A stretch of 64,000 nucleotides of DNA, from the NCBI RefSeq assembly GCF_000027125.1, contig NC_017626.1; one strand, written 5' to 3'. The notes beneath the pieces were generated by a model. That model was not told where the DNA came from and made no database searches. It was given only the letters and a program-made list of their open reading frames with translations. The stretch is from Escherichia coli 042. Lineage in GTDB: Bacteria > Pseudomonadota > Gammaproteobacteria > Enterobacterales > Enterobacteriaceae. This document shows positions 3,859 through 40,892 of this stretch, piece by piece. The position numbers and the translations under genes were made by a program. Position 1 is the first letter of the stretch; every line of letters begins with the position of its first letter.

Positions 3859-3911
3859 TGGGACCCTTATATGGACCCACCGACTGGGTCCAATAATTTG
3901 AGGGTCCAATA
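3859..3911. promoter_or_regulatory. cluster of GGACCC/GGGTCC motifs immediately upstream of int (possible Int/Xis or autoregulatory sites)
   Basis: tGGGACCC (3859-3866). Inverted pair TGGACCCAccgacTGGGTCCA (3872-3892). Direct repeat GGGTCCAAT at 3886-3894 and 3902-3910, ending 3 nt before the int ATG. Confidence 0.3.
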
Positions 3912-3912
3912 C

Positions 3913-5142
3913 ATGGCAAGGCAGACTAAAAAACTCACAGACACTGAAATCAAAAACACCAAACCAGCAGACAAAGAGATCAATCTCTTCGATGGTGATG
4001 GGCTACTGCTACGAATCGCTCCTTCATCAAAAGGAGGGAAGAAGAACTGGTATCTCAGATATCCAGTGCCAGTAACCAAGAAGCGCACCAAGATGAGCTT
4101 GGGTACCTACCCTCACCTCTCATTAGCAAAGGCAAGAGCTTTGCGTGATGAATACCTGTCGTTACTTGCTAATGGTGTTGACCCTCAAGTCCACATCACT
4201 GAAAAAACTAATGCTCTGAAAGATGCCACGGAGCACACGCTACAAGCAGTTTCTCGAAAGTGGTTAGATGAGAAAATTAAGACTTCTGGCATCTCTCTAG
4301 ACCATGCAGAAGATATCTGGCGCAGCCTCGAAAAAAACATCTTTTCAACTCTGGGTGATGTTCCTATCAAAGAGATCCGCCCCAAAATGCTCAAGCAGCA
4401 TCTTGACCCAATTGAGCAGCGCGGTGTTCTCGAAACTCTACGTCGTATAATTTCCAGACTGAATGAAATCTTTCGCTATGCTGCCACGGAAGAGCTTATA
4501 GAGTTCAATCCTGCCGACAATCTCGCTCAGCGTTTCAGTAAACCTAAGAAGCAAAACATGCCTGCCCTTCCACCTGATGAGCTACCACGCTTCATGGTTG
4601 CTTTATCTAACGCATCTATACGGTTAGAAACCCGTATGCTGATCGAGTGGCAATTGTTGACGTGGGTAAGGCCCGGTGAAGCCGTTCGGGCAAGATGGTG
4701 TGATATTGATGAAGAGAGCAGATTTTGGAATATCCCTTCAGAATTCATGAAAATGAAACGCCCACATAAGGTTCCATTGAGTAAAGAAGCTCTCCGCATT
4801 TTAGAAAACATGCGCCCTATCAGTGGTCATAGAGAATGGGTTTTCCCCAGCATCAAAGCTCCCCTCAGTCATATGCATGAACAAACAGCTAATGCAGCCA
4901 TAATTCGTATGGGGTTTGGCGGAGAGCTTGTTGCTCATGGTATGAGATCTATTGCAAGGACAGCAGCCGAAGAATACGGTAAGTTTAGAACGGAGGTGCT
5001 TGAATCCGCTCTGGCTCATACTAAAAAAGATGAAATAATAGCCGCGTATAACCGTTCGGAATACCTAGTTGAAAGAGAAGAACTAATGAAATGGTGGGGG
5101 GATTATGTCAGCAGCAAAAAATATAAGATGATGGCAGCATAA
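3913..5142 (+). CDS. P4-type tyrosine recombinase/integrase
   Basis: The N-terminus MARQTKKLTDTEIKNTKPADKEINLFDGDGLLLRIAPSSKGGKKNWYLRY is the typical P4/IntA-family arm-binding domain. The C-terminal catalytic region has ...VAHGMRSIARTAAEE... and ...ALAHTKKDEIIAAYNRSEY (R..HxxR..Y pattern). ATG 3913 is preferred over the track start 3871. Confidence 0.9.
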   Translation: MARQTKKLTDTEIKNTKPADKEINLFDGDGLLLRIAPSSKGGKKNWYLRYPVPVTKKRTKMSLGTYPHLSLAKARALRDEYLSLLANGVDPQVHITEKTNALKDATEHTLQAVSRKWLDEKIKTSGISLDHAEDIWRSLEKNIFSTLGDVPIKEIRPKMLKQHLDPIEQRGVLETLRRIISRLNEIFRYAATEELIEFNPADNLAQRFSKPKKQNMPALPPDELPRFMVALSNASIRLETRMLIEWQLLTWVRPGEAVRARWCDIDEESRFWNIPSEFMKMKRPHKVPLSKEALRILENMRPISGHREWVFPSIKAPLSHMHEQTANAAIIRMGFGGELVAHGMRSIARTAAEEYGKFRTEVLESALAHTKKDEIIAAYNRSEYLVEREELMKWWGDYVSSKKYKMMAA

Positions 5143-5163: not shown

Positions 5164-6501
5164 ATGACACAGCATAAGGTGAAAGTAATGAGAATATCAA
5201 AAACATTAGAATCATTATTTACATTTCTAAAGGAAAAAGAGCAGAAAGGTCAACTATTCAATAAAGAGGCTATACTCACAGCCACCGGTTGGAAAGCGGC
5301 TACATTTAGAACTTATTGGGTTAAAGGGCAGTTATCTGACTTTATTAGCGCAATTGATGAAGATACATTTGAGGCATCAAACTGTCAAAACATCTCAGTT
5401 ATAGAGTTTTCGAAACTATTATCTCAAAGTAAGCATAGAAGAGGGTTAGGTCATAATTGCCAGTCGAAACTAGCAAAAGCATTATTAACAAAATCTAGAG
5501 ATAATATGATGCTTGCTCTTGAATTATATAATAGACCTTCAATTGAGAATAGAATGGATGCATTTGTAATGTGTTTTTGCACTTCATGGGAACAATTATT
5601 AAAAGCTATTTTGATTGAAAAAAATGGTGAAGAGTCAATTTTCAAAAAAGAAAACAAGCGAGGATTCAGAGAAACTATTTCACTAAGAGACTGCTTAGAA
5701 AAAACATTCCCATCGAATTCAAAGGTAAGAAATAATATAGAACAAATAACAGTTTTCAGAGATCAGGCTGTACACCTTTTAATGCCAGAAATACAAGGGA
5801 TAGCCTCAAGGATATTTCAGTCTGGCGTTCTTAATTATTCATCATATTTTGAAAAATTCACAGAGGTTTCTTTTCTCAATAACAATAGCACAGGAATGAT
5901 ATCCTTGGTAGGTGAGTTTAGAACACCGCCAATATCCGTACTGAAATCCATTTATGGAGAAGTAGCGACTGATATATTAGACTTAGCAACAACTCTTCAG
6001 CAAGAAGTTGATGATAAAAATGACATAGAGTATGCAATTCCCTTAAATGTAAAACTTGTTTTTGCGACATCAGATGATGATGGGAATACCATAACCTTAG
6101 CTAAAGCTGATGAGGGAATCGAGGGGCTTAAGAAGGCTCTAATTATAGAAAAACCAGTAGATAGATCAAGAACACATCCGTATTTGCAGAAGGATGCCAT
6201 TGAGCATATAAATGAAAAAATCTACGAACTTTATAGTATAGAAAAGATAGAAAAGCATTTAGTATTCAAAGATAACAAAACAGGAAAGAAAGCGATAAAT
6301 AAAAATTGCTTTGATGCTGTTATTTGTAAGAACGGATGGAAAAAATCAAATAATAAATATCATCACAAAAACAATAATCCAGAATACCACTATTATTCAC
6401 CAGCATTAGTAGATGAATTTGTCAAGAAAGCTATGACAAACGAAGATTATCTAATGAATACAAAAAAATGGTATAATGCCAGAAGAAGTAAGAAAAAGTG
6501 A
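5164..6501 (+). CDS. DUF3644-like protein (hypothetical; candidate defence/abortive-infection-associated)
   Basis: 445-aa ORF, very AT-rich. The central segment MMLALELYNRPSIENRMDAFVMCFCTSWEQLLKAILIEKNG...ISLRDCLEKTF...VRNNIEQITVFRDQAVH resembles the DUF3644 pattern as I remember it. ATG 5188 (SD aaggtg) is an alternative start. Confidence 0.6.
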   Translation: MTQHKVKVMRISKTLESLFTFLKEKEQKGQLFNKEAILTATGWKAATFRTYWVKGQLSDFISAIDEDTFEASNCQNISVIEFSKLLSQSKHRRGLGHNCQSKLAKALLTKSRDNMMLALELYNRPSIENRMDAFVMCFCTSWEQLLKAILIEKNGEESIFKKENKRGFRETISLRDCLEKTFPSNSKVRNNIEQITVFRDQAVHLLMPEIQGIASRIFQSGVLNYSSYFEKFTEVSFLNNNSTGMISLVGEFRTPPISVLKSIYGEVATDILDLATTLQQEVDDKNDIEYAIPLNVKLVFATSDDDGNTITLAKADEGIEGLKKALIIEKPVDRSRTHPYLQKDAIEHINEKIYELYSIEKIEKHLVFKDNKTGKKAINKNCFDAVICKNGWKKSNNKYHHKNNNPEYHYYSPALVDEFVKKAMTNEDYLMNTKKWYNARRSKKK

Positions 6502-6835
6502 TGAATAGTGAAACTATGAACAGTACATATCATTTATAAGTGTGCTGTTCATAGTAATTCACAGAACATACTGATTAATTTTATTTTTTCCTAAAACCGG
6601 AAGAAAATAAACCAGTGAAATATTCTTTACATTTAAAATTCGGAGGCCACGGAAATATAAAATCTAATATTAATTACTAATTATATTTATAAAAGGTCTG
6701 CCTCTGACCATTTGAAATGAAAAACAAATCCCAATAATATAGAAAAAAATATCTGATATAATAATTTTGTAGATAAAATAGGCCTATATAAAAACATATC
6801 TTTAATTCCCCCCTTAAAAAGAGGGGCAAATACTG

Positions 6836-7882
6836 TCATTCCTCAAATCTATATAACGCGCCATCAAGATATTCTTCAACAGTATCTATACCGATCCATC
6901 TTCGGTTCAAACTCTCAGCTACAGCACCGGCAGTCATCGACCCACCAAATGGATCAAGAACTAAATCCCCTTCATCTGTAAGCATTTTAATGAAGAATTC
7001 AGGAAGCTGCATAGGGAAACGCGCAGGATGAATTTTGATACCATTAGCTTTACATTTTTTTGTATAAACGTCATTAGCTGCATTATTACCCATTTTCAAT
7101 ACATCAGACGGTGTTTCATCATCAATAAAATTAGGTGGGATAGACCCTCCATTATGGGTTTTATCAAAAGATTCATTAATATTATGTCCTGATGGTCGAA
7201 CAGTAGTTTTAACACCTTTTGCTGCAAGCCGAAGCATGTCCTTGCTATAAGGACGAAGCACTTTTTTATTACTTGCTTTTGGGTGTGGCCCTTTACTAAA
7301 CCAGAAAACATACTCTACAGAATCCTTCACTCGGACTCGTTTGACTGTAACCCATTGAGCAGGTACAGGCATCTTTGCAGGGTTGTACCAGAAAGTCTCT
7401 TGCGCTAGTCTGAATCCTACTTCCTCAACTAAAGCAATAACTAACTTAAAATGATAGATAGATCTAGTTGGCTCACCGGGATTCCAAGAGCCCCCGATGT
7501 TCAAAACGAAACTGCCATCTTCTGTCAGTATCCTTTTGATTTCTTTCGCAAAATCAACAAACCACTCAACGTAGTCCTTCTGACAGACATTACCATATTC
7601 TTTCTTAAAATGAAGTGCATATGGTGGAGATGTGAAGACTAAGTTAACCGAGTTATCAGGTATTGACTTCATCACGTCTAACGAATCGGCGTGGAAGATC
7701 GAACCCAAGTTAGATTCGTAAAACGGTTCAAACCCGTTGACTAACTTTGTAGTTGAATTTTTCTCTTTTGATGAAAAGTCAAGCGTTTTTTGAATAGTCA
7801 CAACAATAAATCTCGAAATGGGCAATCGGATTGCATTGTTGCGTACATAACACAAGGGATCAAGTACAGATGAACCAACCAC
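6836..7882 (-). CDS. beta-class DNA methyltransferase (N4-cytosine or N6-adenine), type II RM
   Basis: Motif IV VFTSPPY lies near the N-terminus. The AdoMet motif [17 protein letters not shown] lies near the C-terminus, which is the beta-class order. The first codon of the maximal ORF is GTG and the true start is unresolved (no ATG before residue 71). Confidence 0.85.
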
Positions 7883-8559
7883 AGGACTTTACAGCTCTTC
7901 TTAACAGCTTAACTCCTCAAGAGCAGCAAATGCTTTTCACGCAACTTCGCGGAAGAATTCCCATCCATCCTCTTGAACAGCAATGGAATATTACAGCAGA
8001 ATTCATTTTAGAAGCCATTGCGCGAAGCCAAGATATCACGAAACGAGGCGTAAGAGGAATCATTGCAGAGCTATGTTTCGATACATATATCATAGGTGCA
8101 ATGAAACATAAGGGCTGGATACAACATCAACTTTTTGGAGATTTACCCTATGATGCACTGATTTCTCATCCTCATGTCGGGGAAATAAAAATACAAACTA
8201 AAAACCAACGACTTGAACGTGGAGTCCCAAAATACGCAAATGGACCAATGATAAAATTCAATCCATATGTCGAAGGTTGGTATGTTTGCGAAACACAGAA
8301 AACGAGGACAGGAAAAAATGCGGAAGGGTTAGATACGAGGCCATATAGATTTGGTGAGTTTGATATACTATCAGTTTGCCTCCATCCGTCATCGGGTGAT
8401 TGGACACGATTCATGTTTTGCCCTGCATATACACTAATGCCAAGAGCGACAAATCCTGAACTAATTGCTGTTTTACAACCAGTACCACCTACACGACAAG
8501 GAAATTGGACTGATAATCTTGAGGAAGCGATTGAATGGCATTTGAACCGTAATCGTTAA
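7870..8559 (+). CDS. putative type II restriction endonuclease (PD-(D/E)xK-like)
   Basis: Divergent from, and abutting, the methyltransferase. The candidate catalytic motif is LPYD(106)[10 protein letters not shown](117)IK(119)IQTK. No recognisable family beyond this. ATG 7870 is the first ATG (the track ORF starts at TTG 7831). Confidence 0.55.
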
Positions 8560-9204: not shown

Positions 9205-9516
9205 TCACTCCTGCCTCCCAATCATATCCCCAAGAAACCTTTTTCCTCGTAATTTTAATCTTGCTTTATCTTCAATGCTAATATTCGATAATTGTAATAT
9301 CAGTCCTAATATTAACTCCTTATCTACCTCTTCTACTTTACAGCCCATAGCTTTAGCTACCTCAGCACCAAGGATGATCTTCAAGCGTGTCTCTGCGCTC
9401 TTGGATAGAGATTTTTCTTTACTCTTAAGGCGATTCAGACGCATTTGAGCTGATGCTATTTTTTGCTTAATGGTTTTTTCTGATCTCGGCTTTCTACCTT
9501 TATCATCCGTATTCAT
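9205..9516 (-). CDS. TraD-like conjugal transfer / relaxosome accessory protein
   Basis: 103-aa basic protein. ...ETRLKIILGAEVAKAMGCKVEEVDKELILGLILQLSNISIEDKARLKLRGKRFL resembles the small Ti-type TraD family pattern (K-I-x-LG..V.KA.G ... LlG.LL.L). It is divergent from the relaxase gene across an 835-bp hairpin-rich spacer. Confidence 0.5.
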   Translation of the reverse strand: MNTDDKGRKPRSEKTIKQKIASAQMRLNRLKSKEKSLSKSAETRLKIILGAEVAKAMGCKVEEVDKELILGLILQLSNISIEDKARLKLRGKRFLGDMIGRQE

Positions 9517-9621: not shown

Positions 9622-9695
9622 GCAGCGCGAGATGATTGTTCAAAACAATCACATTGCTGGAACAGGGTTCATCCCTGTTAATGATAGGATTCATC
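9622..9695 (+). repeat. twin-hairpin element copy R1 (candidate oriT/recombination site)
   Basis: gcagcgcgagaTGATTGTTcaaAACAATCAcattgctggAACAGGGttcatCCCTGTTaatgataggattcatc. It is repeated at 24950-25023, with 3 substitutions plus 1 indel over the 62-63 nt core. Confidence 0.85.
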
Positions 9696-9937
9696 TCAAA
9701 AAATGATGTTTTGGTTTTAAAAATATGATATTAGTAAGCTCAAAATAAAAACATGCAACACATACGAATGCAGTCACTAACATTAATTACCTGATACTCT
9801 CCGCGTTACTTATTTTATTGAATCAATGAAAACAATTTTACCTCTTGCTTTTTGACTCTGATTTCTGGTCTTAACCTGTGAATTGTGCAACACATAAAAG
9901 TATTTATAATTTTCACTATTTATTTTAAATTCTGCTT

Positions 9938-10276
9938 TCCCGCCTTACGGCGAGAGACTAATTTAACTACTTTTGCCCTTACGGGCGTTTTCTAAACACC
10001 AGAATCCAATATTATTATCCTACCTCAACCGTTTATCCGATTCCTACCTTTTTAATTTCACAGTCTGTAAAACTAGAGCTATTATTTAACTATAGAAAAA
10101 CATAAAACATTGTCGTTATTTTTAGCTCCTTTAGGAGATATAAAAATAAAGCAATGCCCACCTATACACTGCTACGCAGTGTGTGGGGTCTACCGACGGT
10201 TGCCTGCCGCAGGCTAACACCGTTTCCTTCGGAAACAAGGTCAACGTCAACACCAGAGTTTTTCTTACGAAAAACT
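9938..10276. other. hairpin-rich region upstream of the relaxase gene (candidate oriT / ssDNA-structure region)
   Basis: CGCCttacGGCG (9941-9952). GCCCttacGGGC (9975-9986). ACACTGCtacGCAGTGT (10166-10182). Nested ACGGT-tGCCTGccgCAGGCtaac-ACCGT (10196-10223). GTTTCCttcGGAAAC (10222-10236). AGTTTTTCttacGAAAAACT (10257-10276). The TTAC loop recurs. Confidence 0.45.
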
Positions 10277-10351
10277 AAAACCAGCTGAGTCGTATTGGAG
10301 ATTTATATTTTGGTTTGATATTTAAATTTATTTTGAGGTTGTTTTTATTAT

Positions 10352-11860
10352 ATGGCTATTTTTCATCTGGATTTTAAAATTGTGAAACGTTCTGAAGGCA
10401 GATCTTCCGTTGCGAAAGCTGCCTATCATGCTCGTACACGTATAACAGATGAAAGAACAGGTGATACCTATGATTATAGTCGCCGTACCGATTTATACGG
10501 ACATTTCATATTAGCACCAATTAATGCTCCAGAACATATCGTGAAAGACTCTACAGCATTGTGGAATGAAGTTGAAAGAGTTGAGCGCCAGAGCAATGGT
10601 CAAACATCCCGTTATTTCGATGTTGCCATACCTGCCGAGTTAAACAATGACGACAAGAAAAGACTTGTCCTTGAGTATTGTCAGAAAAATTTCGTTGATA
10701 AAGGCATGATTGCCGATATCGCTTTCCACGATCTTGATAGCGATAATCCTCATGCTCACGTTATGTTGACATTAAAAACCATAGGCCCTGAAGGTTTTGG
10801 TAAAAAAGAAAGAAGCTGGAACGACAGAAAAATGTCTGTTATATGGCGTGAATCATGGGCATCTATGGCTAACAGCTACCTTGCTGCCGCTGGCTCGTCA
10901 GAACGTATTGACCATCGTTCTCTTCAGGCCCAGCATGAAGAGGCATTAGAAAAAGCGGCGGTAGCTTTAGATAATGAAGAAAAAGCGCTATGGCTTGCTA
11001 AAGCCGCTGAAACAAACCGTCCTCCAATGAAGCGTATCCATAGTGCCAAATGGCGTAGTAAAGCAGCACAAGAGCAAAGAGCAGCAGAACAGGCTGTTCG
11101 TGATGCTGCCAAGCAGGAAGCGGTTGAAGTCTACAAGACTTTCAGCGAACTTGATCTTGAAATCGTCGTTGATGTCAGAAGCTTCACCGTGGCTGCTCTT
11201 GCTGAACCAGAAGAGATTGTATTACCAGAAACGCGCTCCGGCTCTTCTTCTCATGAAGCACAAAGTCCTGTATTGGTAGCGCCTATTCCTCATACTCATG
11301 TGCGTGGAGTTAAATCTTACCGCGATAAAGAAAAAGTGAGTAAAGTTGTCATTAATAATATATCAGAACCAAATGTTGCTGATGCTGACATAAACACTCT
11401 TTGGAAAACATCTCCATCTAAAACCAAAAATATGGCATCCAAAAGTACCGCTGAAAGTGTTAAAAGGAAACAGGCTAATCCGCGTCAGGATAATATCTTT
11501 AAACGCTTTACAACGCTTTTGATCGGTTTCTTCAAAGAGAAATTTATATGGGCTAAGAAGAAACCTGATCCTACCGAGATTGAACATGACAGGCATGTAG
11601 CAGAAAATTACGTCTTTGATGAAGTGCTGGGTGTCTATGTATCACGCGCTGACCATGAACAACGAGCCAGATTCAACGGTGATGATAAAGAGTTCTCTGG
11701 TTACAAGCCAACACCTGATGAGATTAAGCGTTTTCCAAGCCGTCTAGCTAATACAGCACAAACTGATAGAGAGCTCGACTACATGCCTTCGCTCGTGGCT
11801 GATAAGAAATCGTTAGCACCTAAATTGAAACCAAATGCTCCCTATAAAAATAGATTATAA
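10352..11860 (+). CDS. MobA/MobL-family (MOBQ-type) relaxase
   Basis: The N-terminus MAIFHLDFKIVKRSEGRSSVAKAAYHARTRITDERTGDTYDYS carries the catalytic Tyr region. The histidine triad HDLDSDNPHAHVMLT is present. The C-terminal half is low-complexity and no primase or helicase motifs are seen. Confidence 0.88.
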   Translation: MAIFHLDFKIVKRSEGRSSVAKAAYHARTRITDERTGDTYDYSRRTDLYGHFILAPINAPEHIVKDSTALWNEVERVERQSNGQTSRYFDVAIPAELNNDDKKRLVLEYCQKNFVDKGMIADIAFHDLDSDNPHAHVMLTLKTIGPEGFGKKERSWNDRKMSVIWRESWASMANSYLAAAGSSERIDHRSLQAQHEEALEKAAVALDNEEKALWLAKAAETNRPPMKRIHSAKWRSKAAQEQRAAEQAVRDAAKQEAVEVYKTFSELDLEIVVDVRSFTVAALAEPEEIVLPETRSGSSSHEAQSPVLVAPIPHTHVRGVKSYRDKEKVSKVVINNISEPNVADADINTLWKTSPSKTKNMASKSTAESVKRKQANPRQDNIFKRFTTLLIGFFKEKFIWAKKKPDPTEIEHDRHVAENYVFDEVLGVYVSRADHEQRARFNGDDKEFSGYKPTPDEIKRFPSRLANTAQTDRELDYMPSLVADKKSLAPKLKPNAPYKNRL

Positions 11861-12667: not shown

Positions 12668-12947
12668 AAATACCATACTCATTTCATTATAAATGAACCT
12701 CGATTTTAATAATTTATACCCTGCCCCCATAATCTTTAATTGCCATATTTATTAATACTGAGATTTAAGCTGTGAGATATATATTTAATATAAAACCACG
12801 ATCGTGTGATAAGACGTTTTCTATATTTACTGGAAATATTAAAATCAAACTCTCCGCTTAAACATAACATTATCATTTATGCCTTGCTATTGGTAAGTAT
12901 TAATTTTTTATCTATACAAGAATCTATTATTCAGATAAAGATTCATC

Positions 12948-13208
12948 TTATTCCGCCCTGTCATAAAAATAAAATGACCAAGCATCACAGAACCATTTAA
13001 TATTTTTATCATCAGATGGATATTCATATCCTTTAAGATTCTCTTTGAGAAAAGATATTTGTGATGGCATCAGCATCCCAACAAGTATCTTTATTAGATC
13101 TTCTGAAGGATATTTATCAAACTCATCTCTGTTAATACCTGTTTTTTCTTCAATGATCACTGAAGCTTTAACTATCTCACATAAAACATCATCTTTTTTA
13201 TTTCTCAT
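12948..13208 (-). CDS. hypothetical small protein (86 aa)
   Basis: ATG 13208 is preceded by a strong SD (ataAAGGAGataata). MRNKKDDVLCEIVKASVIIEEKTGINRDEFDKYPSEDL... The track ORF extends to 13292 without an SD. Confidence 0.55.
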   Translation of the reverse strand: MRNKKDDVLCEIVKASVIIEEKTGINRDEFDKYPSEDLIKILVGMLMPSQISFLKENLKGYEYPSDDKNIKWFCDAWSFYFYDRAE

Positions 13209-13327
13209 TATTATCTCCTTTATTGTTTTATATTTAATACCATATAAACAATAAATGTCAAAAATATTTAAAGACAATTTAAGAACAATCAACCCTGAAT
13301 GTATTTGATATGTTGTTCAATACAATA

Positions 13328-14046: not shown

Positions 14047-14601
14047 TTACCGGGCTTGCCAACCGTTATTGATTTTCACCAGAACAATTTTGGCTTCTTC
14101 TGGTTCAGACATCCCTTTCACGCCAGAGAAGGCATTTTTATCAACCCAGCCCGGCACGCCATCCAGTTTCCACGTATAGGTCACTTGCGTCATTTTAACG
14201 CCATTACCCTCACTCGGTTCAGTCCAGCTTTTAACCTCAGCTACGGCACGGTGACCAACACAGGCACCATCTTTACGATCCCAAAACTCAACCTCTTGGC
14301 CTTTGTCTGTTACTTCCAGAACATCTACGCTGCTAAAGCCGTTAGGTTGCTGCGAAACATCAAGCAGTCCCTGATTAGCCAGACCTTTCAAGATTTCATC
14401 ACTGGCACTGTATCCAGCAGAACGATAGCCATGGTTGACCTTAACCGGAAAACCTTTATTGAACGTAAAGTCATTGTCCTGAAGGGAGTAGCAGACCTTA
14501 GATTTTGATATATGCTCGTTTATCGCTTTCTCAAAGTCGCCTTTTTCACCGCAGCCTGATAACAACACGGCAAGTCCTGCAATGACTAAAAATTTACTCA
14601 T
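14047..14601 (-). CDS. lipoprotein, unknown function
   Basis: Signal peptide plus lipobox MSKFLVIAGLAVLLSGC|G. 184 aa. There is a 15-nt gap to the upstream lipoprotein gene. Confidence 0.75.
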   Translation of the reverse strand: MSKFLVIAGLAVLLSGCGEKGDFEKAINEHISKSKVCYSLQDNDFTFNKGFPVKVNHGYRSAGYSASDEILKGLANQGLLDVSQQPNGFSSVDVLEVTDKGQEVEFWDRKDGACVGHRAVAEVKSWTEPSEGNGVKMTQVTYTWKLDGVPGWVDKNAFSGVKGMSEPEEAKIVLVKINNGWQAR

Positions 14602-16974: not shown

Positions 16975-17097
16975 TAAATTTGAACTCAGGATGGAACTAA
17001 TGTCTATACCGTATAATGTATTGATTTTGTGCACAGGAACGATTAAAACTATGATGTTATTGCTTGTATTCTTTACCACAAACATTAGGGAAATCGC

Positions 17098-17505
17098 ATG
17101 TCTGATGCTTTAAAGATCATCAACAATATTCGTACTCTCCGTGCTCAGGCTCGTGAACTGACACTCGAAACCTTGGAAGAGATGTTAGAAAAACTCACTA
17201 TCGTTGTAGAAGAACGTCGTGAAGAAGAGGCCTCATTTCTAAAACAGCAGGAAGAGAAACAGGCCAAGCTGGAAGCATTCCGTCAGAAGTTGTTGGAAGA
17301 TGGCATAGACCCGGCAGAGTTGCTTTCAACTGTTAGCCCATCTTCTTCCAAGACAGGAGCGAAACGCGCCCCACGTCCAGCTAAGTATAAATATGTTGAT
17401 ACCGATGGTTCGGAAAAGACGTGGACAGGTCAGGGCCGAACTCCTCGTGCTATCGCTGCTGCGCTCGAAGCCGGTAAGACACTGGAAGATTTCGAGATCA
17501 AGTAA
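17098..17505 (+). CDS. H-NS family nucleoid-associated protein (island-encoded full-length paralogue)
   Basis: [44 protein letters not shown]... is the N-terminal oligomerisation domain. The C-terminal DNA-binding motif is [17 protein letters not shown]. 135 aa. It is distinct from the core stpA at 50350-50754. Confidence 0.92.
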
Positions 17506-17580
17506 TCTTCATACCATATGTCTACCAAATCCGCTCATTTTTCTTGGGCGGGTTTGTTGAACCAACCTACAGGGATTAAC

Positions 17581-18066
17581 ATGCCAATAAAAGAGTTCTT
17601 AATTATGAAATCAAAAGCCTTTATTAACTTCATGCGCACTGAACTAAAAAACACATTTACAACTTCTCCTTGCGAAAATAAATTAAGAAAGGCTATTTTT
17701 ATTTTTTCTTTATTAAATGCCTTAAATATCATAGGTTATTACATCCTCACATATAGTATGCAAATCCTGTTCCTGTTGCCTATTATTTGGGGAGGGTTAT
17801 TAGCACACGGGACTTACAAACGCTATGGAGATTTGCTTAGATCTGGTTCTGATTGTGCTCTTTTTCTGGTGGCTACTATTACATCAGCATATCTCGTCAT
17901 TAACACAGCAAGTGATGATGTCGATTTTTTTGAAAAGCATATGATAAATGGATTAGGTTTTTTGATTACATATGTTTTTGCTGTAGCTGCATCCGTTCGT
18001 TTTTATATCAGTGCAATAGATTTATATAATAGCTTTATTTCTTTTAAAAAATCAAAAGAAAAATGA
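17581..18066 (+). CDS. small membrane protein, unknown function
   Basis: ATG 17581 is preceded by cagggattaac. About 4 hydrophobic segments (e.g. IFIFSLLNALNIIGYYILTY, ILFLLPIIWGGLLAHG, LFLVATITSAYLVI, FLITYVFAVAASV). Confidence 0.5.
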   Translation: MPIKEFLIMKSKAFINFMRTELKNTFTTSPCENKLRKAIFIFSLLNALNIIGYYILTYSMQILFLLPIIWGGLLAHGTYKRYGDLLRSGSDCALFLVATITSAYLVINTASDDVDFFEKHMINGLGFLITYVFAVAASVRFYISAIDLYNSFISFKKSKEK

Positions 18067-18324: not shown

Positions 18325-19578
18325 TTATTCACTTGCCTGAGTCGCTCTTGTCGCATTTGTTTTTAAATTATTCAGCATTTGCTTATCAACCGGTTGCAGT
18401 TGTTGTCCTAACAGAGCCGCAAGCAAAATATTTGTGTCTTCTGTTCTTTCGATTTGAAGCATTTGTAATCTTAAATCAAGTGCCTGCATTCTTGCCTGCT
18501 CATGCGCAGTTTCTTTTTCATCAGCACTACTGATTTTTACCTGCCAAGCGTCAGCACCTGTTGTATCTGCATAGCGTGAATAGATCTCATATCTTAACAT
18601 TTCCCACTCTGAAGGATTATCCGGGAATGTTGTGCCGGGAAATAAGGTCGCATACTTGTTTTTTACGGAAGCATCTGACCAAGCAAGGTTTGCTCCCTGC
18701 GTAGAGCCCAATGTGGATCCTATTTTGGCCCCTCTGGAGTTCACTGATATATTACTTGCTTTTTTCATTGCCAGTACGGAATCAATGGCGTTTGTTCCAG
18801 CAGTGCTTCTGGAGACAAAGCTCGAAAAGGCCGATAAATATTCTCGACCTTCATTTGTGTCTTCTAATCCTTTGTTCTTCAATGGTTCAACGGGCAAGTT
18901 CCCTATAAGATTTCTTTTTGCCGCTTCAGCAACCTCAATCTGCTCAACAGAATAGGACTGATTCGAAACCTTATTAGACAATGCATCGGATTTAGATAAT
19001 GGTGGTGTAATCAGGCTTGATGCCGACTTATCTTTATCAGGATACTGACCTATAGTATTACACCCACCTCTGTTATATTTCACATCATCTTCGGAGCAAA
19101 CATTTATTGATACTCTGCCCATGATGTTTTTCTTGGCCTCATTTATTCTGGTATTTGCTTGTGTAAACATCTTAACGCTGTTTTCAGATAAAGCCTCTTT
19201 AGCTGAGCTTGTATTCGATCCTGCTGCACCACGACCACCTGCGCTCGTGACTTCTTCACAGGCGTTGGCATCAGGTATTCTGTTTAAGATATTTTTCATG
19301 CGCTGTTCTTGGATTGCCTGACTGGCATTACTGACAACCGCATTCTTCTGATTCTCACTGGCTGTTATGGTTGCTTGTGCCAGCTTGTCGTTCATTGAGA
19401 CTAATGTTTCAATTATTCCATTGCCCATAGATTGGGGTGAAGCCCCCATAAGATACGGTGTCAAAACCTCTTCTGTGACGGGCCAGACAGCGAAAGCTGT
19501 ATTTGTATATAATACAGAAAAACACAAAGCTGAAACCACTGTTATTCTCTTTACTTTAAATTTATTATTACTCATCAC
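18325..19578 (-). CDS. secreted/periplasmic protein, unknown (possibly IcmX/TraW-like partner of the TraY-like protein)
   Basis: 417 aa with signal peptide MMSNNKFKVKRITVVSALCFSVLYTNTAFA|V. It is Cys-containing, Ser/Asn/Ala-rich and has a C-terminal coiled coil. The functional guess rests only on neighbourhood and general features. Confidence 0.6.
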   Translation of the reverse strand: MMSNNKFKVKRITVVSALCFSVLYTNTAFAVWPVTEEVLTPYLMGASPQSMGNGIIETLVSMNDKLAQATITASENQKNAVVSNASQAIQEQRMKNILNRIPDANACEEVTSAGGRGAAGSNTSSAKEALSENSVKMFTQANTRINEAKKNIMGRVSINVCSEDDVKYNRGGCNTIGQYPDKDKSASSLITPPLSKSDALSNKVSNQSYSVEQIEVAEAAKRNLIGNLPVEPLKNKGLEDTNEGREYLSAFSSFVSRSTAGTNAIDSVLAMKKASNISVNSRGAKIGSTLGSTQGANLAWSDASVKNKYATLFPGTTFPDNPSEWEMLRYEIYSRYADTTGADAWQVKISSADEKETAHEQARMQALDLRLQMLQIERTEDTNILLAALLGQQLQPVDKQMLNNLKTNATRATQASE

Positions 19579-19948: not shown

Positions 19949-22609
19949 TCACATTCCATCATTACCTTCTTTTGATGATGAACTACCACCGGAAGATCCA
20001 CTACCGCTCCCTTTCTCTGGAGCCTTAAAGCTTTCAATTGGTGAAGCTTGGGCCTGTAAACTTACAGGCAGCAACGGTCTGTTATGTTCACCAAACGATA
20101 CCGCTCTGTTAGCAGCCTTTTGAGCTACATTCATATAACCTGCTGCGCCTGCTGTATCACCAATAGCATCTGCTGCCTCAGCTGCATGGTAAGCCGAGTT
20201 AGCACTTTCAAGAGACTGATATTCATCCTGCTGATCAAGTGGGCCAGCATTACTCATATGAGTTCTGAATGCAGATCCCGTATCATTGGCTTTATTAGCC
20301 GCCAGTGCTTTCCCCTGTTGAGCCTGTTGCTGTTGTTGAAGCTCACGTTGCTGTTCACGGTCTTTGTTAATTTGCGCATTCCTGATCTGATTACCCATCG
20401 CATTTGAGGTATGGGAAACCTGATCCAACACGGTTTTGGTAAACATAGCACCTTCAACACCTTTTGATGCCGACTGTGCGTAACCCGACATGCTCTGACC
20501 ACCATGAACACCAAGCCACTTCATAATTTCATCAGGGATGATGTGAATCAGTGAAAGTGATTTCTTCACTACCGTGAACATCATTGCAATATAAACAGCA
20601 ATGAGAGCCAGTGACTCGATGATACCTATCCCGGCATTGGCTGACATCATGCCAAAAGCGCCGGAGAATGTTTCGTTGACGATCCCACCAAGGATAGGGA
20701 GCATCGTATAGGCTGCTATTAATCCTGTTATCATTAGCGCTGGTCGCATGGTTAACGATAAAACCAGACCATAACCAGCGCCACCACGACCCACTACGCC
20801 ATCACCATCTGGATGTAAATGTGTTATTACCCATAATGGTGCTGCGACCATTGCTTCAAGGCACAGGATCATCCAGCCTACGCAAACACCAAACCACATG
20901 ACGTAAGGCAGCATAGGAATGACGACGGCTAAAGTATCGCCAGCTATCCATAAAGGGATAACCAGTGGCATAACAATCCCCATAGCGCCAAATGCACCCG
21001 ATACCCAGCTTGCAGTCGCTGATGTCCATGCGCCAAGACCTGCCCCAACAACAGCAGAACTCCCTAATAACGTCCAGCCAGCGGCACTGATCGTATCCCC
21101 AAGCCCTTTAACAGCTAATAACGGGTTTATTGCCTGTAAATTGGCAGCGGTTGTGTCCGTCGAGAACGAGACGATTTTCCCTTGTTTTCTTCCATTGATA
21201 ACGCTGGAACTGAGAAAACCCGCCATTGCACCAGAAATGCTCTTATTGGCTTCACTTTGAAGAGAAGAAACTATTTTTCCAGCATCATCTGTTTTAGGGC
21301 CTACACCACTTTTACCACTGGTATTGGCTTCCGTTCGGTTTTGCGCATCAATACCATTCGCATATCTTGAAGCTGTCGTTGATTTCGCCATATCTTGAGC
21401 CACTTTTGCCATAATCGCGTTCAGGCTGTTATCGAATATATCTCCGTATTCCATTGTCGCTTGCCCGGCTACAGGAAGATTATGAGCTGCTCCATTAATC
21501 GCATCCTGCACACGGATCAGTTTCATACTCCATGCGCCAGCCATAAACCATCCGTCTTTCTGGACATTCTCTTTGAAATCATCCCACTGGTCGCCAGTGG
21601 AGAAAACTGTTCGTACTGCAGTATCAATAATGGATACATATGAGGCCGTTGCGCTGTTTATTCCGGTCTGAATATCAATATTATTATCGGCCACATACTG
21701 TTCAGCCAGCGTTTTCATACTATTATCAAGGCCGATAAATGCGGCATTGTGTGCCTCAATAACATCTGAAATATTCGTCTTTATATCCTGTGGCATATAA
21801 GCCATATACATGCCGCCAGCAGCAATGGTAGCCTGAGCTTTAGCCTGTTCGTCATAAGAAGCTTTGGCCTTCGGGTCTGTAAGCGTGATGCTTCCACATG
21901 CAGCCTTGGATACCAGTAAATTTTTATTCATATCATTACCGGCATTGCTGGCTCCATAACTGTATGTGTATAAATAGGCACCTTTCTCCGGTGTCATTTC
22001 AAACGCAGGCGTGACGTGCGGGAAGGGATCGGCTGCTGCTGATTTCTTCCATAATTCTCCCGCCTTTAACATACAGACGTTATTGATAAAGGCGGTTTTC
22101 GCTATGCGATCAAGCTCCTGATAAGATGCAGATGTGGTAATAACAGCCCCATCTGAGGGGTTGGATGCATAGGTATTCCAGACGGTATCTGCCAGACCGA
22201 CTCCCTGATTAATCATCCACAGCACCATAACCTGAGCGGCACAGAAACCACCTGCTGCCGGGAGTATCATTGCCGTGCCTAATGCAGTTCTTACGGGCAA
22301 CCACATGGAAGACCATTTCTTACCCAGCATTTCTCCGTCATGTGCCGTTGACATGGTTCCGGCAATCAGTGTGTAGGCAGCTAAAATGCCACCAACCAGT
22401 AAAACAGCGCTGTTAAGGATTGTCATTGTGCTGGCTAAGGGACTTTCCGCTAAATTGTCCGGGAATAAGATATCCAGAAACCACAGCTTTGATTTGTCTG
22501 TCTCCGGGACGGTAAATAAATCTGCGGCATAAGCTGACTGAGTTAATAACAGGCAAGCTAATATTACTAATAATATCGATACTTCTTTTTTCTTTATATT
22601 TATCATCAT
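19949..22609 (-). CDS. DotA/TraY-family type IVB secretion integral membrane protein (orphan)
   Basis: 886 aa with an N-terminal signal/TM. The conserved-looking block is ...TAHDGEMLGKKWSSMWLPVRTALGTAMILPAAGGFCAAQVMVLWMINQGVGLADTVW..., followed by a long periplasmic-like region, then about 6 C-terminal TM segments and a Q-rich/Gly-Ser tail. The pattern matches what I remember of IncI TraY and Legionella DotA. Confidence 0.7.
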   Translation of the reverse strand: MMINIKKKEVSILLVILACLLLTQSAYAADLFTVPETDKSKLWFLDILFPDNLAESPLASTMTILNSAVLLVGGILAAYTLIAGTMSTAHDGEMLGKKWSSMWLPVRTALGTAMILPAAGGFCAAQVMVLWMINQGVGLADTVWNTYASNPSDGAVITTSASYQELDRIAKTAFINNVCMLKAGELWKKSAAADPFPHVTPAFEMTPEKGAYLYTYSYGASNAGNDMNKNLLVSKAACGSITLTDPKAKASYDEQAKAQATIAAGGMYMAYMPQDIKTNISDVIEAHNAAFIGLDNSMKTLAEQYVADNNIDIQTGINSATASYVSIIDTAVRTVFSTGDQWDDFKENVQKDGWFMAGAWSMKLIRVQDAINGAAHNLPVAGQATMEYGDIFDNSLNAIMAKVAQDMAKSTTASRYANGIDAQNRTEANTSGKSGVGPKTDDAGKIVSSLQSEANKSISGAMAGFLSSSVINGRKQGKIVSFSTDTTAANLQAINPLLAVKGLGDTISAAGWTLLGSSAVVGAGLGAWTSATASWVSGAFGAMGIVMPLVIPLWIAGDTLAVVIPMLPYVMWFGVCVGWMILCLEAMVAAPLWVITHLHPDGDGVVGRGGAGYGLVLSLTMRPALMITGLIAAYTMLPILGGIVNETFSGAFGMMSANAGIGIIESLALIAVYIAMMFTVVKKSLSLIHIIPDEIMKWLGVHGGQSMSGYAQSASKGVEGAMFTKTVLDQVSHTSNAMGNQIRNAQINKDREQQRELQQQQQAQQGKALAANKANDTGSAFRTHMSNAGPLDQQDEYQSLESANSAYHAAEAADAIGDTAGAAGYMNVAQKAANRAVSFGEHNRPLLPVSLQAQASPIESFKAPEKGSGSGSSGGSSSSKEGNDGM

Positions 22610-24949: not shown

Positions 24950-25023
24950 GCAGCACTTAGTGATTGTTCAAGACAATCACATTGCTGGAACAGGGTTCAT
25001 CCCTGTCAATGATGGATTTATCC
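24950..25023 (+). repeat. twin-hairpin element copy R2
   Basis: gcagcacttagTGATTGTTcaagACAATCAcattgctggAACAGGGttcatCCCTGTcaatgatggatttatcc. It has the same orientation as R1 (9622-9695). Confidence 0.85.
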
Positions 25024-25090
25024 ATAAAGAATTGCGGCGATAGCCGCTATGAAATAAAGGAGAAACAATTTCATCTGTACTCATATATAA

Positions 25091-25692: not shown

Positions 25693-26391
25693 ATGACACA
25701 AATAGATTTTCAATCTCTTAGCAGTTTATCCCCCTTTCAGCTAACACAGTATATTGATGATCATCTTTTCACTAATGAACAGAAAGTGCAGATATTCGAA
25801 CATTATCACAGCACACATAAAGACACTACCAATATCTATTCGAGAAAAGAAAACATTAAATCTATTAAAAAAGATGTTGATTATGTCCATATGTTCACAA
25901 AAAACTTCCAGCAACTCGCAGAACTTGATATTTCCAAGAATGAGTTGAAGGTTATCGCAAGGATTTTAAACATCATGGAGTTTGGAAACTGCTTTCATAT
26001 ATCGCAAGCAAAGCTATGCCGCGACTTAGATATTAAAAAATCAAATATGTCTCTTGTCTTTAAAAAGCTCAAAAAGAAAGGGATCATTATTGATAAAGAT
26101 GGAGATCTCTTTATGAACTCCAACATATTTCTTAAGGGACAAGCGCATTCTATCAATGCCAAACAACGCCCTAATGTTAAAAAGGCACAGGGATTTAACG
26201 CTAATAATGAACCAGTATTTGATAATGTTTATACATTTAATCAAACAAATGATTCTGACAATCAACCTACAGAAGGAATGACTACATCTGAGCCACCAAA
26301 AACATCTGATAGCTGTTCTAACAAAGAAACAGATCCAGCACTGACGCTGCAGTATCCTAAAACAGAAGAGCCAGCTTATGATGATGTTTAA
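25693..26391 (+). CDS. RepL-like winged-helix protein (candidate replication initiator/regulator) 2
   Basis: 232 aa. ...ISKNELKVIARILNIMEFGNCFHISQAKLCRDLDIKKSNMSLVFKKLKKKGIIIDKDGDLFMNSNIFLKGQA... shows the same wHTH plus 'mNsNif.kG' pattern. It is divergent from RepL-like 1 across 1.46 kb of repeats. Confidence 0.5.
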   Translation: MTQIDFQSLSSLSPFQLTQYIDDHLFTNEQKVQIFEHYHSTHKDTTNIYSRKENIKSIKKDVDYVHMFTKNFQQLAELDISKNELKVIARILNIMEFGNCFHISQAKLCRDLDIKKSNMSLVFKKLKKKGIIIDKDGDLFMNSNIFLKGQAHSINAKQRPNVKKAQGFNANNEPVFDNVYTFNQTNDSDNQPTEGMTTSEPPKTSDSCSNKETDPALTLQYPKTEEPAYDDV

Positions 26392-26422: not shown

Positions 26423-26689
26423 CTACTGCCAGTCAATGAGATCCTCTGGTGATATCCTATCCTTCTCCATCAATTTGAGGATCTTTTTCATTTTTAACTT
26501 ACGTGCCTTTTTCTCACCAATCTCCTGATAGTATTCTTCCCGCCGTTCCGCTACTACCTTGCGGAACTTCTTCAAGAGTTTGTTCAATGTCTTTATATCA
26601 GTGGTAGCCGCTTCAGCTTGGATTTTTCTATACATATACATAACGTGGAATTCATCAATCATATTAAACCTCTTAGTTTTATCATTCAT
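26423..26689 (-). CDS. truncated H-NS family protein (H-NST-like; oligomerisation domain only)
   Basis: 88 aa from ATG 26689 (SD gaGGGAaatcac). ...IKTLNKLLKKFRKVVAERREEYYQEIGEKKARKLKMKKILKLMEKDRISPEDLI parallels H-NS ...[19 protein letters not shown]...LIADGIDPNELL. There is no [12 protein letters not shown]-binding domain. Confidence 0.65.
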   Translation of the reverse strand: MNDKTKRFNMIDEFHVMYMYRKIQAEAATTDIKTLNKLLKKFRKVVAERREEYYQEIGEKKARKLKMKKILKLMEKDRISPEDLIDWQ

Positions 26690-26731
26690 GTGATTTCCCT
26701 CTTTCGAGGGAATACTCATTACATCTAAATA

Positions 26732-28280: not shown

Positions 28281-28499
28281 TTATGCTACTTTATTACGTG
28301 ATAAAGTAATCTTTTCATCAATCCACTTATCTATATCACTCTCTAAGAATGCTATTGCTCTTTCACCAAGTTTTATTGGCGATGGGAATTCATTACGACT
28401 AATCAAACGATAAATCCACGCTTTACATAAACCAGTACGATTTAATACTTCTGGTAAACGAATAAGTCTTTTACTGTTTGATACTACATTAGTATTCAT
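28281..28499 (-). CDS. AlpA-family (MerR-superfamily) phage/island transcriptional regulator or excisionase
   Basis: 72 aa from ATG 28499 (SD gtgAAGGAGataaag). ...KRLIRLPEVLNRTGLCKAWIYRLISRNEFPSPIKLGERAIAFLESDIDKWI is the classic AlpA/Xis HTH pattern. Confidence 0.85.
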   Translation of the reverse strand: MNTNVVSNSKRLIRLPEVLNRTGLCKAWIYRLISRNEFPSPIKLGERAIAFLESDIDKWIDEKITLSRNKVA

Positions 28500-28654
28500 C
28501 TTTATCTCCTTCACGTTGTTCTCGATAGAGATAATTATCGTATTTTTTCTAGGAGCTAACTAGGGGTGTTCAGGCGAGAGATTTTAACGCTAAAGTGAGT
28601 TTTGATGAGTTTCGGGGAAGTTCAACCGGAGTGAAGTTCCCCATTTTTTGCTTT

Positions 28655-29521
28655 TTACTTTTCTTGTTCTTCTTGCTCGTCTTCGGGTAAGTAGTAGTTG
28701 ATGAAACTCCACACTTTCCAATCCCTGTCAGAGTCGTATTTAACTATAAAATCGCCTAACGATTTGATGTAGCTCTGGTTGGTCATAAAACCTACAGCCA
28801 AAGGATAATCAGTATCTTTTACCATGCCTTCACTGCGGTTATTTTCACTAATCAGATGAGGGTAAAGCAACCTCGTCAGCAGCGCTATACCAATTTTGGT
28901 GTTGTTCTTTTTCTCCCAGAACATGAGATCAAACATCGGTATAAGATTATATTTCATAACTTTTTTGATCGTACCGACCCCAAAACGATAACCTCTTTCT
29001 TCATGGGGCCTCACCTTAAGCTCCTTCTTCCATCGCGGTATCATCGTTTTCAGATGCTCAATGATGTCTTCTGTAGAAGCCTCTGAGAGATGAATTTCAA
29101 CAAACATGACATCTTTACTGATGCCCGCTTGATTAAGGTATTGCGAAAGCTGCCTTGACCTCTTAGCCTCTTCTTGCGGGCCAATAAGTCTATTCACCAT
29201 ATCAACAGCCCCAATAACATCTTTCGCACCAGCAATAGTCAGTGGATTTGCTATGTAGCTTGATGAAAGGATTTCTTCTGGCTTGTCAATTTTAGCGTCC
29301 TCATTAAAGAGGACTTGCCCGGACTGTATCTTCTGCTCATGATCATCAACAAGAGCTTTAAGTTGGGGTTTAAGCGAATCGTATTGGGTGAGCAGATTGT
29401 AAGCAAGAACACGTCTTTCTACTTCTATGTATATCTGTTCAACCGTCAGCTCGTTCAGCACATTATACTTGTCAACGTCGAACCATTTAGTCACTACCTT
29501 TACTATTTCTGTTCTCGTCAT
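28655..29521 (-). CDS. hypothetical protein (288 aa)
   Basis: Long ORF translationally coupled to the upstream gene by an ATGA overlap at 29518-29521. No family recognised. Confidence 0.65.
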   Translation of the reverse strand: MTRTEIVKVVTKWFDVDKYNVLNELTVEQIYIEVERRVLAYNLLTQYDSLKPQLKALVDDHEQKIQSGQVLFNEDAKIDKPEEILSSSYIANPLTIAGAKDVIGAVDMVNRLIGPQEEAKRSRQLSQYLNQAGISKDVMFVEIHLSEASTEDIIEHLKTMIPRWKKELKVRPHEERGYRFGVGTIKKVMKYNLIPMFDLMFWEKKNNTKIGIALLTRLLYPHLISENNRSEGMVKDTDYPLAVGFMTNQSYIKSLGDFIVKYDSDRDWKVWSFINYYLPEDEQEEQEK

Positions 29522-29889: not shown

Positions 29890-30248
29890 TGACGCTAACG
29901 CATTCGGTAGGTTAAATGAAGAAAAGCTGACGCAGAGGATGTGAGTTCAACTTCGAGTAGGTAGCTGAACTGTTGAATGTGTTATCTTTCAGCATTGTTT
30001 GACGTCAAACGTTCAGCAGTTTCGCTAAATGGTTCCACAATTGAACCCTTAATTAAAAATTAAATCAAAATTCCAATATAAATCAATTTATTAAAGCACT
30101 AATTACAGGGACGCCAGCCAATCATGATTGGACGGTGCAAGGACAACACCAACAAAAACAGGAAGTTAGAAGTCTCAGCAAGACACCGACCAGACGGTGA
30201 GGAGACATAAAAGGATACGCAAAGGAGCCGCGGCTCCTGGTGATATGA

Positions 30249-30272
30249 AAGCCCACAGATGTGGGCTTTTTC
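30249..30272 (+). terminator. intrinsic terminator (plus-strand orientation), abutting the ypjA stop
   Basis: aAGCCCACagatGTGGGCTttttcg. The T-run is on the plus strand only. Confidence 0.7.
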
Positions 30273-30280
30273 GTTGATGG

Positions 30281-35381: not shown

Positions 35382-35384
35382 TAC

Positions 35385-35515: not shown

Positions 35516-35618
35516 AAAAACTTTCAGGCAGCTAAGGAAAGTTGAATCAGACATTAGATGAAATATTTCAACCAATTACAGCACCAATTTAAACTCAGTA
35601 AATCACAGCGCAGATCAA

Positions 35619-40882: not shown

Positions 40883-40892
40883 TTTAATGTTA

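Follow-up and report, generated by a model that had tools for sequence, protein, structure and literature searches.

Full-length and truncated H-NS paralogs have been known from related genomic islands since 2005, when H-NST and H-NSB were described on the serU island of uropathogenic Escherichia coli (UPEC) and on island IE3 of enteropathogenic E. coli (EPEC) (Williamson & Free, 2005, as reported in PMC7074111 and PMC3897749). According to the same two reports of that study, EPEC H-NST antagonizes H-NS. H-NSB, also called Hfp or H-NS2, was characterized by Müller et al. (PMC2814080); it forms heteromers with H-NS, by which it is itself repressed, and complements hns phenotypes (PMC2814080, PMC7544231). 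Truncated N-terminal fragments of H-NS block DNA bridging (PMC5647153). Piña-Iturbe et al. defined the ROD21-like (EARL) islands and found a full-length homolog in 33 of 54, 14 of which also have an oppositely oriented truncated homolog (PMC6035254); the interplay of silencer and antagonist has been discussed by the same group (PMC7074111). All full-length homologs on EARL islands fall into the Hfp clade according to Fitzgerald et al., who give asnW or serU as the location of hfp in E. coli (PMC7544231). Here, we analyze a stretch of 64,000 nucleotides from E. coli 042 (contig NC_017626.1; "the window" throughout), in which an AT-rich island at ssrA encodes both a full-length H-NS paralog (17098-17505) and, on the opposite strand, a truncated one.

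The H-NS-family genes of the window

We consider it very likely that the window holds a mobilizable island of the serU-island/IE3/ROD21-like group, integrated at ssrA and carrying an Hfp-type silencer together with an H-NST-type anti-silencer. The two genes, typed by sequence comparison as Hfp/H-NSB and H-NST, lie in opposite orientation, as in many members of the group. The features in question are:

3384 to 3746, plus strand: ssrA, the transfer-messenger RNA (tmRNA) gene and integration target (ARAGORN; Rfam RF00023, 292.8 bits)
3747 to 30113: AT-rich mobilizable genomic island, 26.4 kb, 37.6% GC, at the 3' end of ssrA, the CP4-57 site of K-12
17098 to 17505, plus strand: full-length H-NS paralog, 135 aa (RefSeq WP_001278198.1)
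26423 to 26662, minus strand: hnsT, an H-NST-type truncated H-NS homolog, 79 aa from a conserved MIDEF start, the last of a minus-strand gene string
50350 to 50754, minus strand: stpA, the core-genome H-NS paralog, its protein 100% identical to K-12 StpA and its ygaP-stpA context the same

Much of this had been anticipated in a first-pass annotation of the window. The AT-rich island that it proposed stands, with 37.6% GC across 3747-30113 against about 50-52% in the flanks, as do the island-encoded 135-aa homolog with both domains intact and the core gene stpA. The truncated H-NS-like gene, which it had placed at 26423-26689, is there and encodes only the N-terminal domain, but its start has to be moved to the conserved MIDEF codon at 26662. 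That three H-NS-family genes lie within 64 kb is true but incidental: the distance from ssrA to stpA is about 43 kb in E. coli, K-12 included. No further H-NS- or Hha-like locus was found in the window by tblastn with H-NS, StpA, Hfp, H-NST and Hha. Besides H-NS and StpA, carriers of the island probably have an Hfp-like and an H-NST-like protein, at least four members of the family in all; the presence of chromosomal hns, which lies outside the window, is assumed. This should be borne in mind when hns or stpA mutant phenotypes of clinical E. coli are interpreted.

The full-length paralog

The 135-aa protein matches both H-NS domains in Pfam above the gathering score, Histone_HNS_N (PF22470) over residues 1-77 (E = 4e-25, 87.8 bits) and the C-terminal Histone_HNS (PF00816) over residues 96-134 (E = 2e-16, 59.9 bits), and the TWTGQGRTP motif is intact. 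In the alignments that the first-pass annotation had called for, it shares 76% identity with Hfp/H-NSB of UPEC 536, 64% with K-12 H-NS, 53% with StpA and about 64% with the IncHI-type plasmid H-NS, of the Sfh kind. The residues of dimerization site 1 (R12, R15, L26, L30 and L33) and of the DNA hook (Q112, G113 and R114) are retained; with both domains and the Q/G/R hook in place, the protein is a member of the H-NS family. Site-2 positions F61 and K64 match Hfp of 536, position 117 is basic in both proteins (R here, K in Hfp), and position 21 is Leu, where H-NS has Cys.

It is not H-NS proper, scoring 180.9 bits against NCBIfam NF008193 (cut-off 211) and lacking Cys21, and it is not StpA, with 168.5 bits against NF007656 (cut-off 202) and L33 instead of F33. 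Neighbor-joining (NJ) trees were built from Kimura distances with 200 bootstraps and StpA as the outgroup, reference HlpC and Hpp sequences being left out. The protein clustered with Hfp, to the exclusion of K-12 H-NS, in 97.5% of bootstraps, and formed a sub-lineage with proteins of Enterobacter, Salmonella and Klebsiella that are 82-96% identical to it (70% bootstrap). Membership in the HlpC clade was rejected because L33 is kept, whereas position 33 diverges from Leu in all HlpC proteins (PMC7544231). By these comparisons the full-length protein is assigned to the Hfp/H-NSB clade, which its authors describe as holding extensive diversity (PMC7544231). Its location on a chromosomal AT-rich island of the serU/EARL type agrees with that clade, while its 76% identity is below the >90% used by Fitzgerald et al. 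(2020).

A plasmid origin was also rejected: the gene is chromosomal, and tblastn against 72,556 plasmids in PLSDB returned nothing above 76% identity, the best match being 75% identical. For the ratio of nonsynonymous to synonymous substitution rates (dN/dS), comparison with a 97%-identical allele gave 0.11 and comparison with hfp 0.06, values low enough to indicate that the full-length gene is under purifying selection. The accessions WP_001278198 and WP_014639269 do not appear in the supplements of PMC7544231 and PMC7074111.

The truncated paralog

The reading frame of the truncated gene is open over 26423-26719 on the minus strand, giving 98 aa, and a start at 26689 would give 88 aa. A start at 26662, giving a protein of 79 aa, is favored both by RefSeq, which annotates the identical gene in this way in other genomes, and by the MIDEF start conserved across the family. 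This protein matches Histone_HNS_N alone in Pfam (E = 3e-17), the C-terminal domain being absent, and is 80% identical to H-NST of EPEC E2348/69 and 78% to H-NST of UPEC 536. Its residues 5-77 align with residues 8-80 of the chain in PDB 3NR7, a crystal structure of the H-NS oligomerization domain, so the short protein spans both oligomerization sites.

Numbered from the MIDEF start, A16 and L30 are present. Both are needed by H-NST for antagonism and oligomerization (PMC3897749, PMC7074111), and A16V and A16L mutants of EPEC H-NST are inactive (PMC3897749). In its length of about 80 aa, its lone oligomerization domain and A16/L30, the protein agrees with the H-NST family; it departs from EPEC H-NST at R60 and R63, both of which are K. 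Position 63 is often K or Q among other H-NST proteins (PMC7074111).

Proposed function of the gene pair

By analogy with these families, the full-length protein would bind AT-rich DNA through its intact Q/G/R minor-groove hook and would oligomerize at dimerization sites 1 and 2, with itself and with the resident H-NS and StpA. It would enlarge the pool of silencer that coats the 37.6% GC island, and would add to the silencing of that island and of part of the H-NS regulon. Like hfp, its gene is probably repressed by H-NS, and the protein is probably a minor species in hns+ cells. The truncated protein, which has both oligomerization sites and no DNA-binding domain, would enter H-NS-family filaments and poison DNA bridging and silencing within them. 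The first-pass annotation had likewise suggested a paralog that could buffer silencing and a truncated form that could relieve it. That part of its functional reading is retained here, both proteins belonging to families with experimentally shown roles (76% and 80% identity, key residues in place); the part drawn from the ribosome-binding sites is not. The idea of a silencer with an anti-silencer, and the pairing of the genes, are already published for this island family (PMC6035254, PMC7074111).

Several points weigh against this account. The function of both proteins is argued wholly from homology, at 76-80% identity. In Salmonella Enteritidis, neither the levels of H-NS and StpA nor the Salmonella pathogenicity island (SPI) genes were detectably affected when hfp was deleted, and the abundance of Hfp was about 1/30 that of H-NS (PMC7544231); any buffering in hns+ cells may thus be marginal. 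The UPEC and EPEC H-NST proteins are 92% identical over a 78-residue BLASTP alignment, yet the UPEC protein is nearly inactive, which is explained by its single A16V change (PMC3897749); overall identity therefore cannot predict activity. The protein in the window has A16, but K is substituted for both R60 and R63, residues with a part in DNA binding by EPEC H-NST. Scans for promoters and terminators around both genes gave counts at or below shuffled expectation, and are thus uninformative on expression.

The same measurements in S. Enteritidis lend some weight to a narrower role, in which the full-length paralog would mainly regulate the life cycle of its own island (excision, mobilization and cargo) and have a negligible "stealth" effect on the core regulon. 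A protein that is so scarce, and whose deletion leaves H-NS, StpA and SPI genes unchanged (PMC7544231), would suit such a role. Blocked excision of ROD21 alters the expression of that island's hns homolog (PMC6035254), and in every copy examined the paralog lies within a conserved backbone of TraD, MobQ, TraW and DotA/TraY genes. However, Hfp of UPEC 536 affects bgl, capsule and fimbriae, all encoded off the island, when hns is also mutated (PMC2814080), and the sequence specificity of DNA binding in the H-NS family is low. No sequence feature separates an island-specific from a global regulator. We judge the narrower role possible but rather unlikely, and prefer the pairing of an Hfp-type silencer with an H-NST-type anti-silencer.

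A more speculative extension of that pairing concerns how the truncated gene is transcribed. From 29521 to 26423 all genes are read from the minus strand, 39-140 nt apart, in the transcription order DUF6387, AlpA, four small open reading frames (ORFs) and truncated hns, and this order is conserved in the islands compared. The string has just two terminator-like sites, one within the DUF6387 gene (29125-29108) and another downstream of hnsT. The truncated gene could be the last cistron of an excision-module unit, with excision co-producing the anti-silencer and the resulting toggle governing transfer, an arrangement that we consider improbable. If it were true, the onset of excision would automatically yield an anti-silencer, which would strip H-NS and Hfp from the AT-rich island and license the mobilization genes; with the island's silencer, this would make a self-contained silencing/anti-silencing toggle. 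EPEC hnsT is reportedly monocistronic, which would weigh against co-transcription with the AlpA module.

Start contexts and status of the truncated gene

The first-pass annotation had also noted a ribosome-binding context common to the two island genes and had read it as a hint of common origin or co-regulation. The sites are:

17088 to 17100, plus strand: GGGAAATCGCATG, the start context of the full-length gene
26687 to 26699, minus strand: GGGAAATCACATG, a second occurrence of the string, in the truncated gene's leader before a non-conserved upstream ATG

The string is indeed present at both sites. Allowing up to one mismatch, GGGAAATC(G/A)CATG occurs at these two sites only in the window, in a test that is circular, the pattern having been derived from the same two sites. 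In favor of a relationship, the likeness runs slightly into the coding sequence (ATGnnTGAT), and a leader containing GAGGGAAAT is conserved in one hnsT sub-lineage. However, in hnsT the string precedes Met11 of the 98-aa ORF, whereas Met1 of the full-length protein is homologous to Met20, the first residue of MIDEF. This start, which is that of the characterized 80-aa H-NST proteins, lies 27 nt downstream of the motif's ATG and is preceded, at 7 nt, by an AGAGG ribosome-binding site of its own. Among 120 homologs compared, MIDEF is conserved in all save one, which has V at the start position, and the AGAGG site is likewise universal, while Met11 is replaced by Ile in several and the nine residues from Met11 to Met20 are far more variable than the hnsT core. 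The sequences upstream of hnsT in EPEC, UPEC and O111 and of hfp in 536 are unrelated and lack the motif. Long-leader relatives of hnsT have Asn where the window has His, implying GGGAAAT-AAC-ATG, which is less like the start context of the full-length gene. With the motif out of register, its ATG variable and the upstream sequences unrelated, common origin or co-regulation is unsupported and the shared string is a curiosity; that it reflects common origin or coupled translational control is very unlikely.

The hnsT sub-lineage of the window (26663-26731, minus strand) has a conserved in-frame leader, ...SKEGNN(M/I)NDKTKR(F/Y)N, directly before MIDEF. The GAGGGAAAT core of this leader is strongly conserved and the ATG of Met11 is not. 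The leader upstream of MIDEF may be a regulatory element in the untranslated region, an alternative start or an N-terminal extension.

That the truncated gene is a decaying, functionless remnant of a duplicated full-length hns, as the loss of the entire DNA-binding domain and a start codon made ambiguous by three in-frame ATGs might suggest, is strongly disfavored already and scarcely credible, given a dN/dS of 0.05-0.2 against the EPEC, UPEC and O111 homologs, at least 800 protein clusters of the same form (76-105 aa) with a nearly invariant core across Enterobacterales, an identity to its full-length neighbor of only about 37% over 43 residues, the published assignment of short and long forms to two clades that are only distantly related to each other (PMC6035254), and the activity of the EPEC homolog (PMC3897749). 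The low dN/dS indicates purifying selection on this gene as on the full-length one and, together with the wide conservation of the family, that the truncated gene is maintained, which argues against a pseudogene. A recent duplication of the two island genes was rejected on their low identity and separate clades.

Island ends and distribution

Homology to K-12 ends exactly at 3746 and restarts at 30114, where the prophage CP4-57 ends in K-12 (psaA/ypjA). This break at the CP4-57 position, together with the low GC content, marks the stretch as an island that occupies the site of that prophage. The right border of the island was searched for a direct repeat of the 3' end of ssrA, and no k-mer of 11 nt or longer was found; a lone 10-mer at 31942 was rejected as an attR repeat, as it lies outside the island and looks like chance. 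The right junction (30095-30125) holds only a degenerate remnant of the ssrA end, CGCCAGC, where K-12 has a 14-bp psaA remnant (GACGCCAGCCAATCATG in the window, CTCCGCCAGCCCACCAATCATG in K-12). A functional attR has possibly been lost, which would leave the island fixed in place.

Distribution was counted in 5,426 complete E. coli genomes. The region of the full-length paralog is present at 90% nucleotide identity or more in 77, in all 77 on the chromosome, and the hnsT region has a match in 474. At least 80% of the island is present in three genomes, and about two dozen others hold 64-72% of it at 91-97% identity; many of these partial copies include the ssrA end and the integrase, and their defense-type cargo varies. 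The ssrA version of the island occurs in dozens of E. coli genomes. E. coli AHB1 carries the same island, with 99.5% identity over an aligned 30 kb and 99.9% over 3700-28600. Beyond the island, the ypjA-ygaQ stretch at 30272-41019, which includes the tRNA gene ileY (CAT anticodon, 37995-38070), is shared by the window and K-12 and is deleted in AHB1. An Rfam scan returned the tmRNA, one tRNA and naRNA4 only, and matched neither of the hns-like genes.

Gene content of the island

In addition to the two H-NS-family genes, the island contains:

3871 to 5142, plus strand: tyrosine integrase (Pfam Arm-DNA-bind_3, Phage_int_M, Phage_integrase)
5164 to 6501, plus strand: DUF3644/PDC-S19 candidate defense gene (PADLOC candidate system PDC-S19, E = 3e-68)
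6836 to 7882, minus strand: type II methyltransferase
9205 to 9516, minus strand: TraD-family small conjugal transfer protein, mobilization module (Pfam TraD, E = 7e-13)
10352 to 11860, plus strand: MobA/MobL (MobQ) relaxase (Pfam MobA_MobL, E = 2e-57)
14047 to 14601, minus strand: SEN1982-family lipoprotein
17518 to 18066, plus strand: 182-aa ORF, starting 12 nt after the full-length paralog
18325 to 19578, minus strand: TraW-family protein
19949 to 22609, minus strand: DotA/TraY
25693 to 26391, plus strand: RepL-like ORF, 232 aa
26732 to 28146, minus strand: four small ORFs, between AlpA and hnsT in the gene string
28281 to 28514, minus strand: AlpA-family helix-turn-helix (HTH) protein, putative excision/recombination directionality factor (RDF) (Pfam Phage_AlpA, E = 1e-17)
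28655 to 29521, minus strand: DUF6387 gene, 867 bp, adjoining AlpA (Pfam DUF6387, E = 1e-48)

The closest relative of the integrase is K-12 IntA of CP4-57, at 49% identity. Copies of the island backbone, some of them with identical alleles of H-NS or H-NST, sit at ssrA, pheV, leuX, serU and asnW. The identical 135-aa protein is encoded on a pheV island of the O111:H2 strain 12A, and the identical 79-aa protein, together with a 97%-identical full-length gene, on a leuX island of strain AST198. The integrases of the serU, asnW (IE3), pheV and leuX islands share only 31-34% identity with the integrase in the window (32% for the Asn-tRNA integrase of IE3, 31% for that of the serU island). A shared backbone with divergent integrases at five sites suggests that integrase modules have been swapped among its copies.

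Other backbone proteins are closer to their counterparts. TraD is 55% identical to TraD of the 536 serU island, and for the relaxase, identity is 59% to the protein of the same serU island and 77-79% to the pheV and leuX versions. The AlpA-family protein is 51% identical to its IE3 homolog, and the DUF6387 protein 39-41% to those of IE3 and the serU island. EARL islands have an 843-bp gene of unknown function next to the RDF gene (PMC6035254), and we propose, from position and size, that the DUF6387 gene is its counterpart.

The cargo near the integrase (5164-8559) looks defense-related, with the DUF3644 gene, the type II DNA methyltransferase and an overlapping 242-aa ORF, which could be the endonuclease of the methyltransferase. 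At comparable positions, other copies of the island carry ApeA, a reverse transcriptase with TIR, GmrSD, an AvaI restriction-modification system, or Dcm with DUF262. Pfam, NCBIfam and PADLOC yielded no family for the 182-aa ORF downstream of the full-length paralog. Hydrophobic stretches are present in its translation, and the stretch of sequence that contains it occurs in only 6 of the 5,426 genomes. In other island copies, a TraW-like gene directly follows the paralog at this position. A related island (L010, GCA_001473095.1) has two full-length paralogs, at 10001-10408 and 12806-13210 (135 and 134 aa), 2.4 kb apart, with no annotated truncated form and with a PAAR-motif gene cluster beside them.

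A conserved cis element of about 75 nt recurs in these islands, with three hairpins formed by GATTGT..ACAATC, ACAGGG..CCCTGT and a GC-rich third stem. The window has two copies, at 9622-9704 between traD and mobQ and at 24950-25032, about 660 nt upstream of the RepL-like 232-aa ORF. Further copies are in L010 (10847-10929) and in four other comparison islands, L007 (18510-18592 and 18657-18733), L012 (11260-11342 and 11590-11668), L006 (28646-28696) and L008 (2627-2700). The element is 90-100% conserved between islands whose proteins share only 40-80% identity. In IE3 its loops are changed and its stems retained, with compensatory changes in the third stem. The DNA folds have z-scores of -3.1 and -4.8, and the Rfam scan gave no match to the element. 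It is a candidate origin of transfer (oriT) or replication origin of the island family.

Comparison with known islands and proteins

The serU island of 536 has the same gene order as the window: TraD (minus strand), MobQ (plus), lipoprotein, Hfp (plus), H-NST (minus), small ORFs, HTH and DUF6387. EPEC IE3 has the hnsT end of the same arrangement, and no full-length H-NS gene was found in the stretches of E2348/69 that were examined. The EARL islands resemble the window island in their low GC content, in an AlpA-like HTH gene beside what is plausibly the counterpart of their ~843-bp gene (here AlpA at 28281-28514 and DUF6387 at 867 bp), in the TraD and MobA/MobL relaxase module, in the SEN1982-family lipoprotein, and in full-length and truncated hns homologs in opposite orientation (PMC6035254). 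The window island additionally has the TraW and DotA/TraY genes. By the integrase and att definition it is not an EARL island, since it is at ssrA, has a CP4-57 IntA-like integrase targeting that gene and retains only a degenerate 7-nt repeat remnant; the integrase was judged here against that of IE3 at asnW (32%). The serU island has likewise been excluded from the EARL group on integrase and att grounds by the authors who defined it (PMC7074111).

Among the proteins, Sfh (HppH), the classical "stealth" homolog of the IncHI1 plasmids R27 and pSf-R27, is also full-length, horizontally acquired and encoded on AT-rich mobile DNA, and the buffering logic proposed for it is the one proposed here for the window paralog. 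The Sfh clade is restricted to plasmids, whereas the paralog in the window reaches only about 64% identity with the IncHI-type proteins and has no plasmid copy in PLSDB above the 76% given earlier. The H-NST proteins of IE3 and the UPEC serU island are, like the short protein in the window, N-terminal-only proteins of about 80 aa that start with MIDEFHVMYMY and share A16/L30, and their genes are likewise last in a string of DUF6387, AlpA, small ORFs and hnsT, opposite to the full-length gene. Those in the window differ in a C-terminal tail of KKILKLMEKDRISPEDLIDWQ (KRAQRLLEKMACDRVSPEDLID in EPEC), in K at R60/R63, and in a longer conserved in-frame leader with extra ATGs upstream.

Closest of all is Hfp, known from UPEC 536 and CFT073, enteroaggregative E. 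coli 042 and S. Enteritidis ROD21, which is likewise a two-domain protein of 134-135 aa encoded on AT-rich chromosomal islands with the TraD/MobQ/AlpA/DUF6387 backbone. The window protein shares with it 76% identity, F61, K64, a basic residue at 117, L33, a residue other than Cys at 21, and a grouping that excludes H-NS and StpA. It differs in falling short of the >90% identity by which Hfp sequences were collected, in its own sub-lineage with Enterobacter, Salmonella and Klebsiella proteins, in the 182-aa ORF 12 nt downstream of its gene, and in the ssrA location of its island, the reported E. coli hfp sites being serU and asnW (PMC7544231). The window is thus an ordinary further example, with a new allele at the ssrA site: it carries the standard Hfp-type and H-NST-type pair of well-described mobilizable islands, not an unusual arrangement. 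The value of the comparison is mostly one of bookkeeping and clarity. Its modest addition is a backbone with identical H-NS or H-NST alleles at ssrA, pheV and leuX, which extend the sites beyond the asnW and serU given for E. coli hfp in the 2020 survey (PMC7544231).

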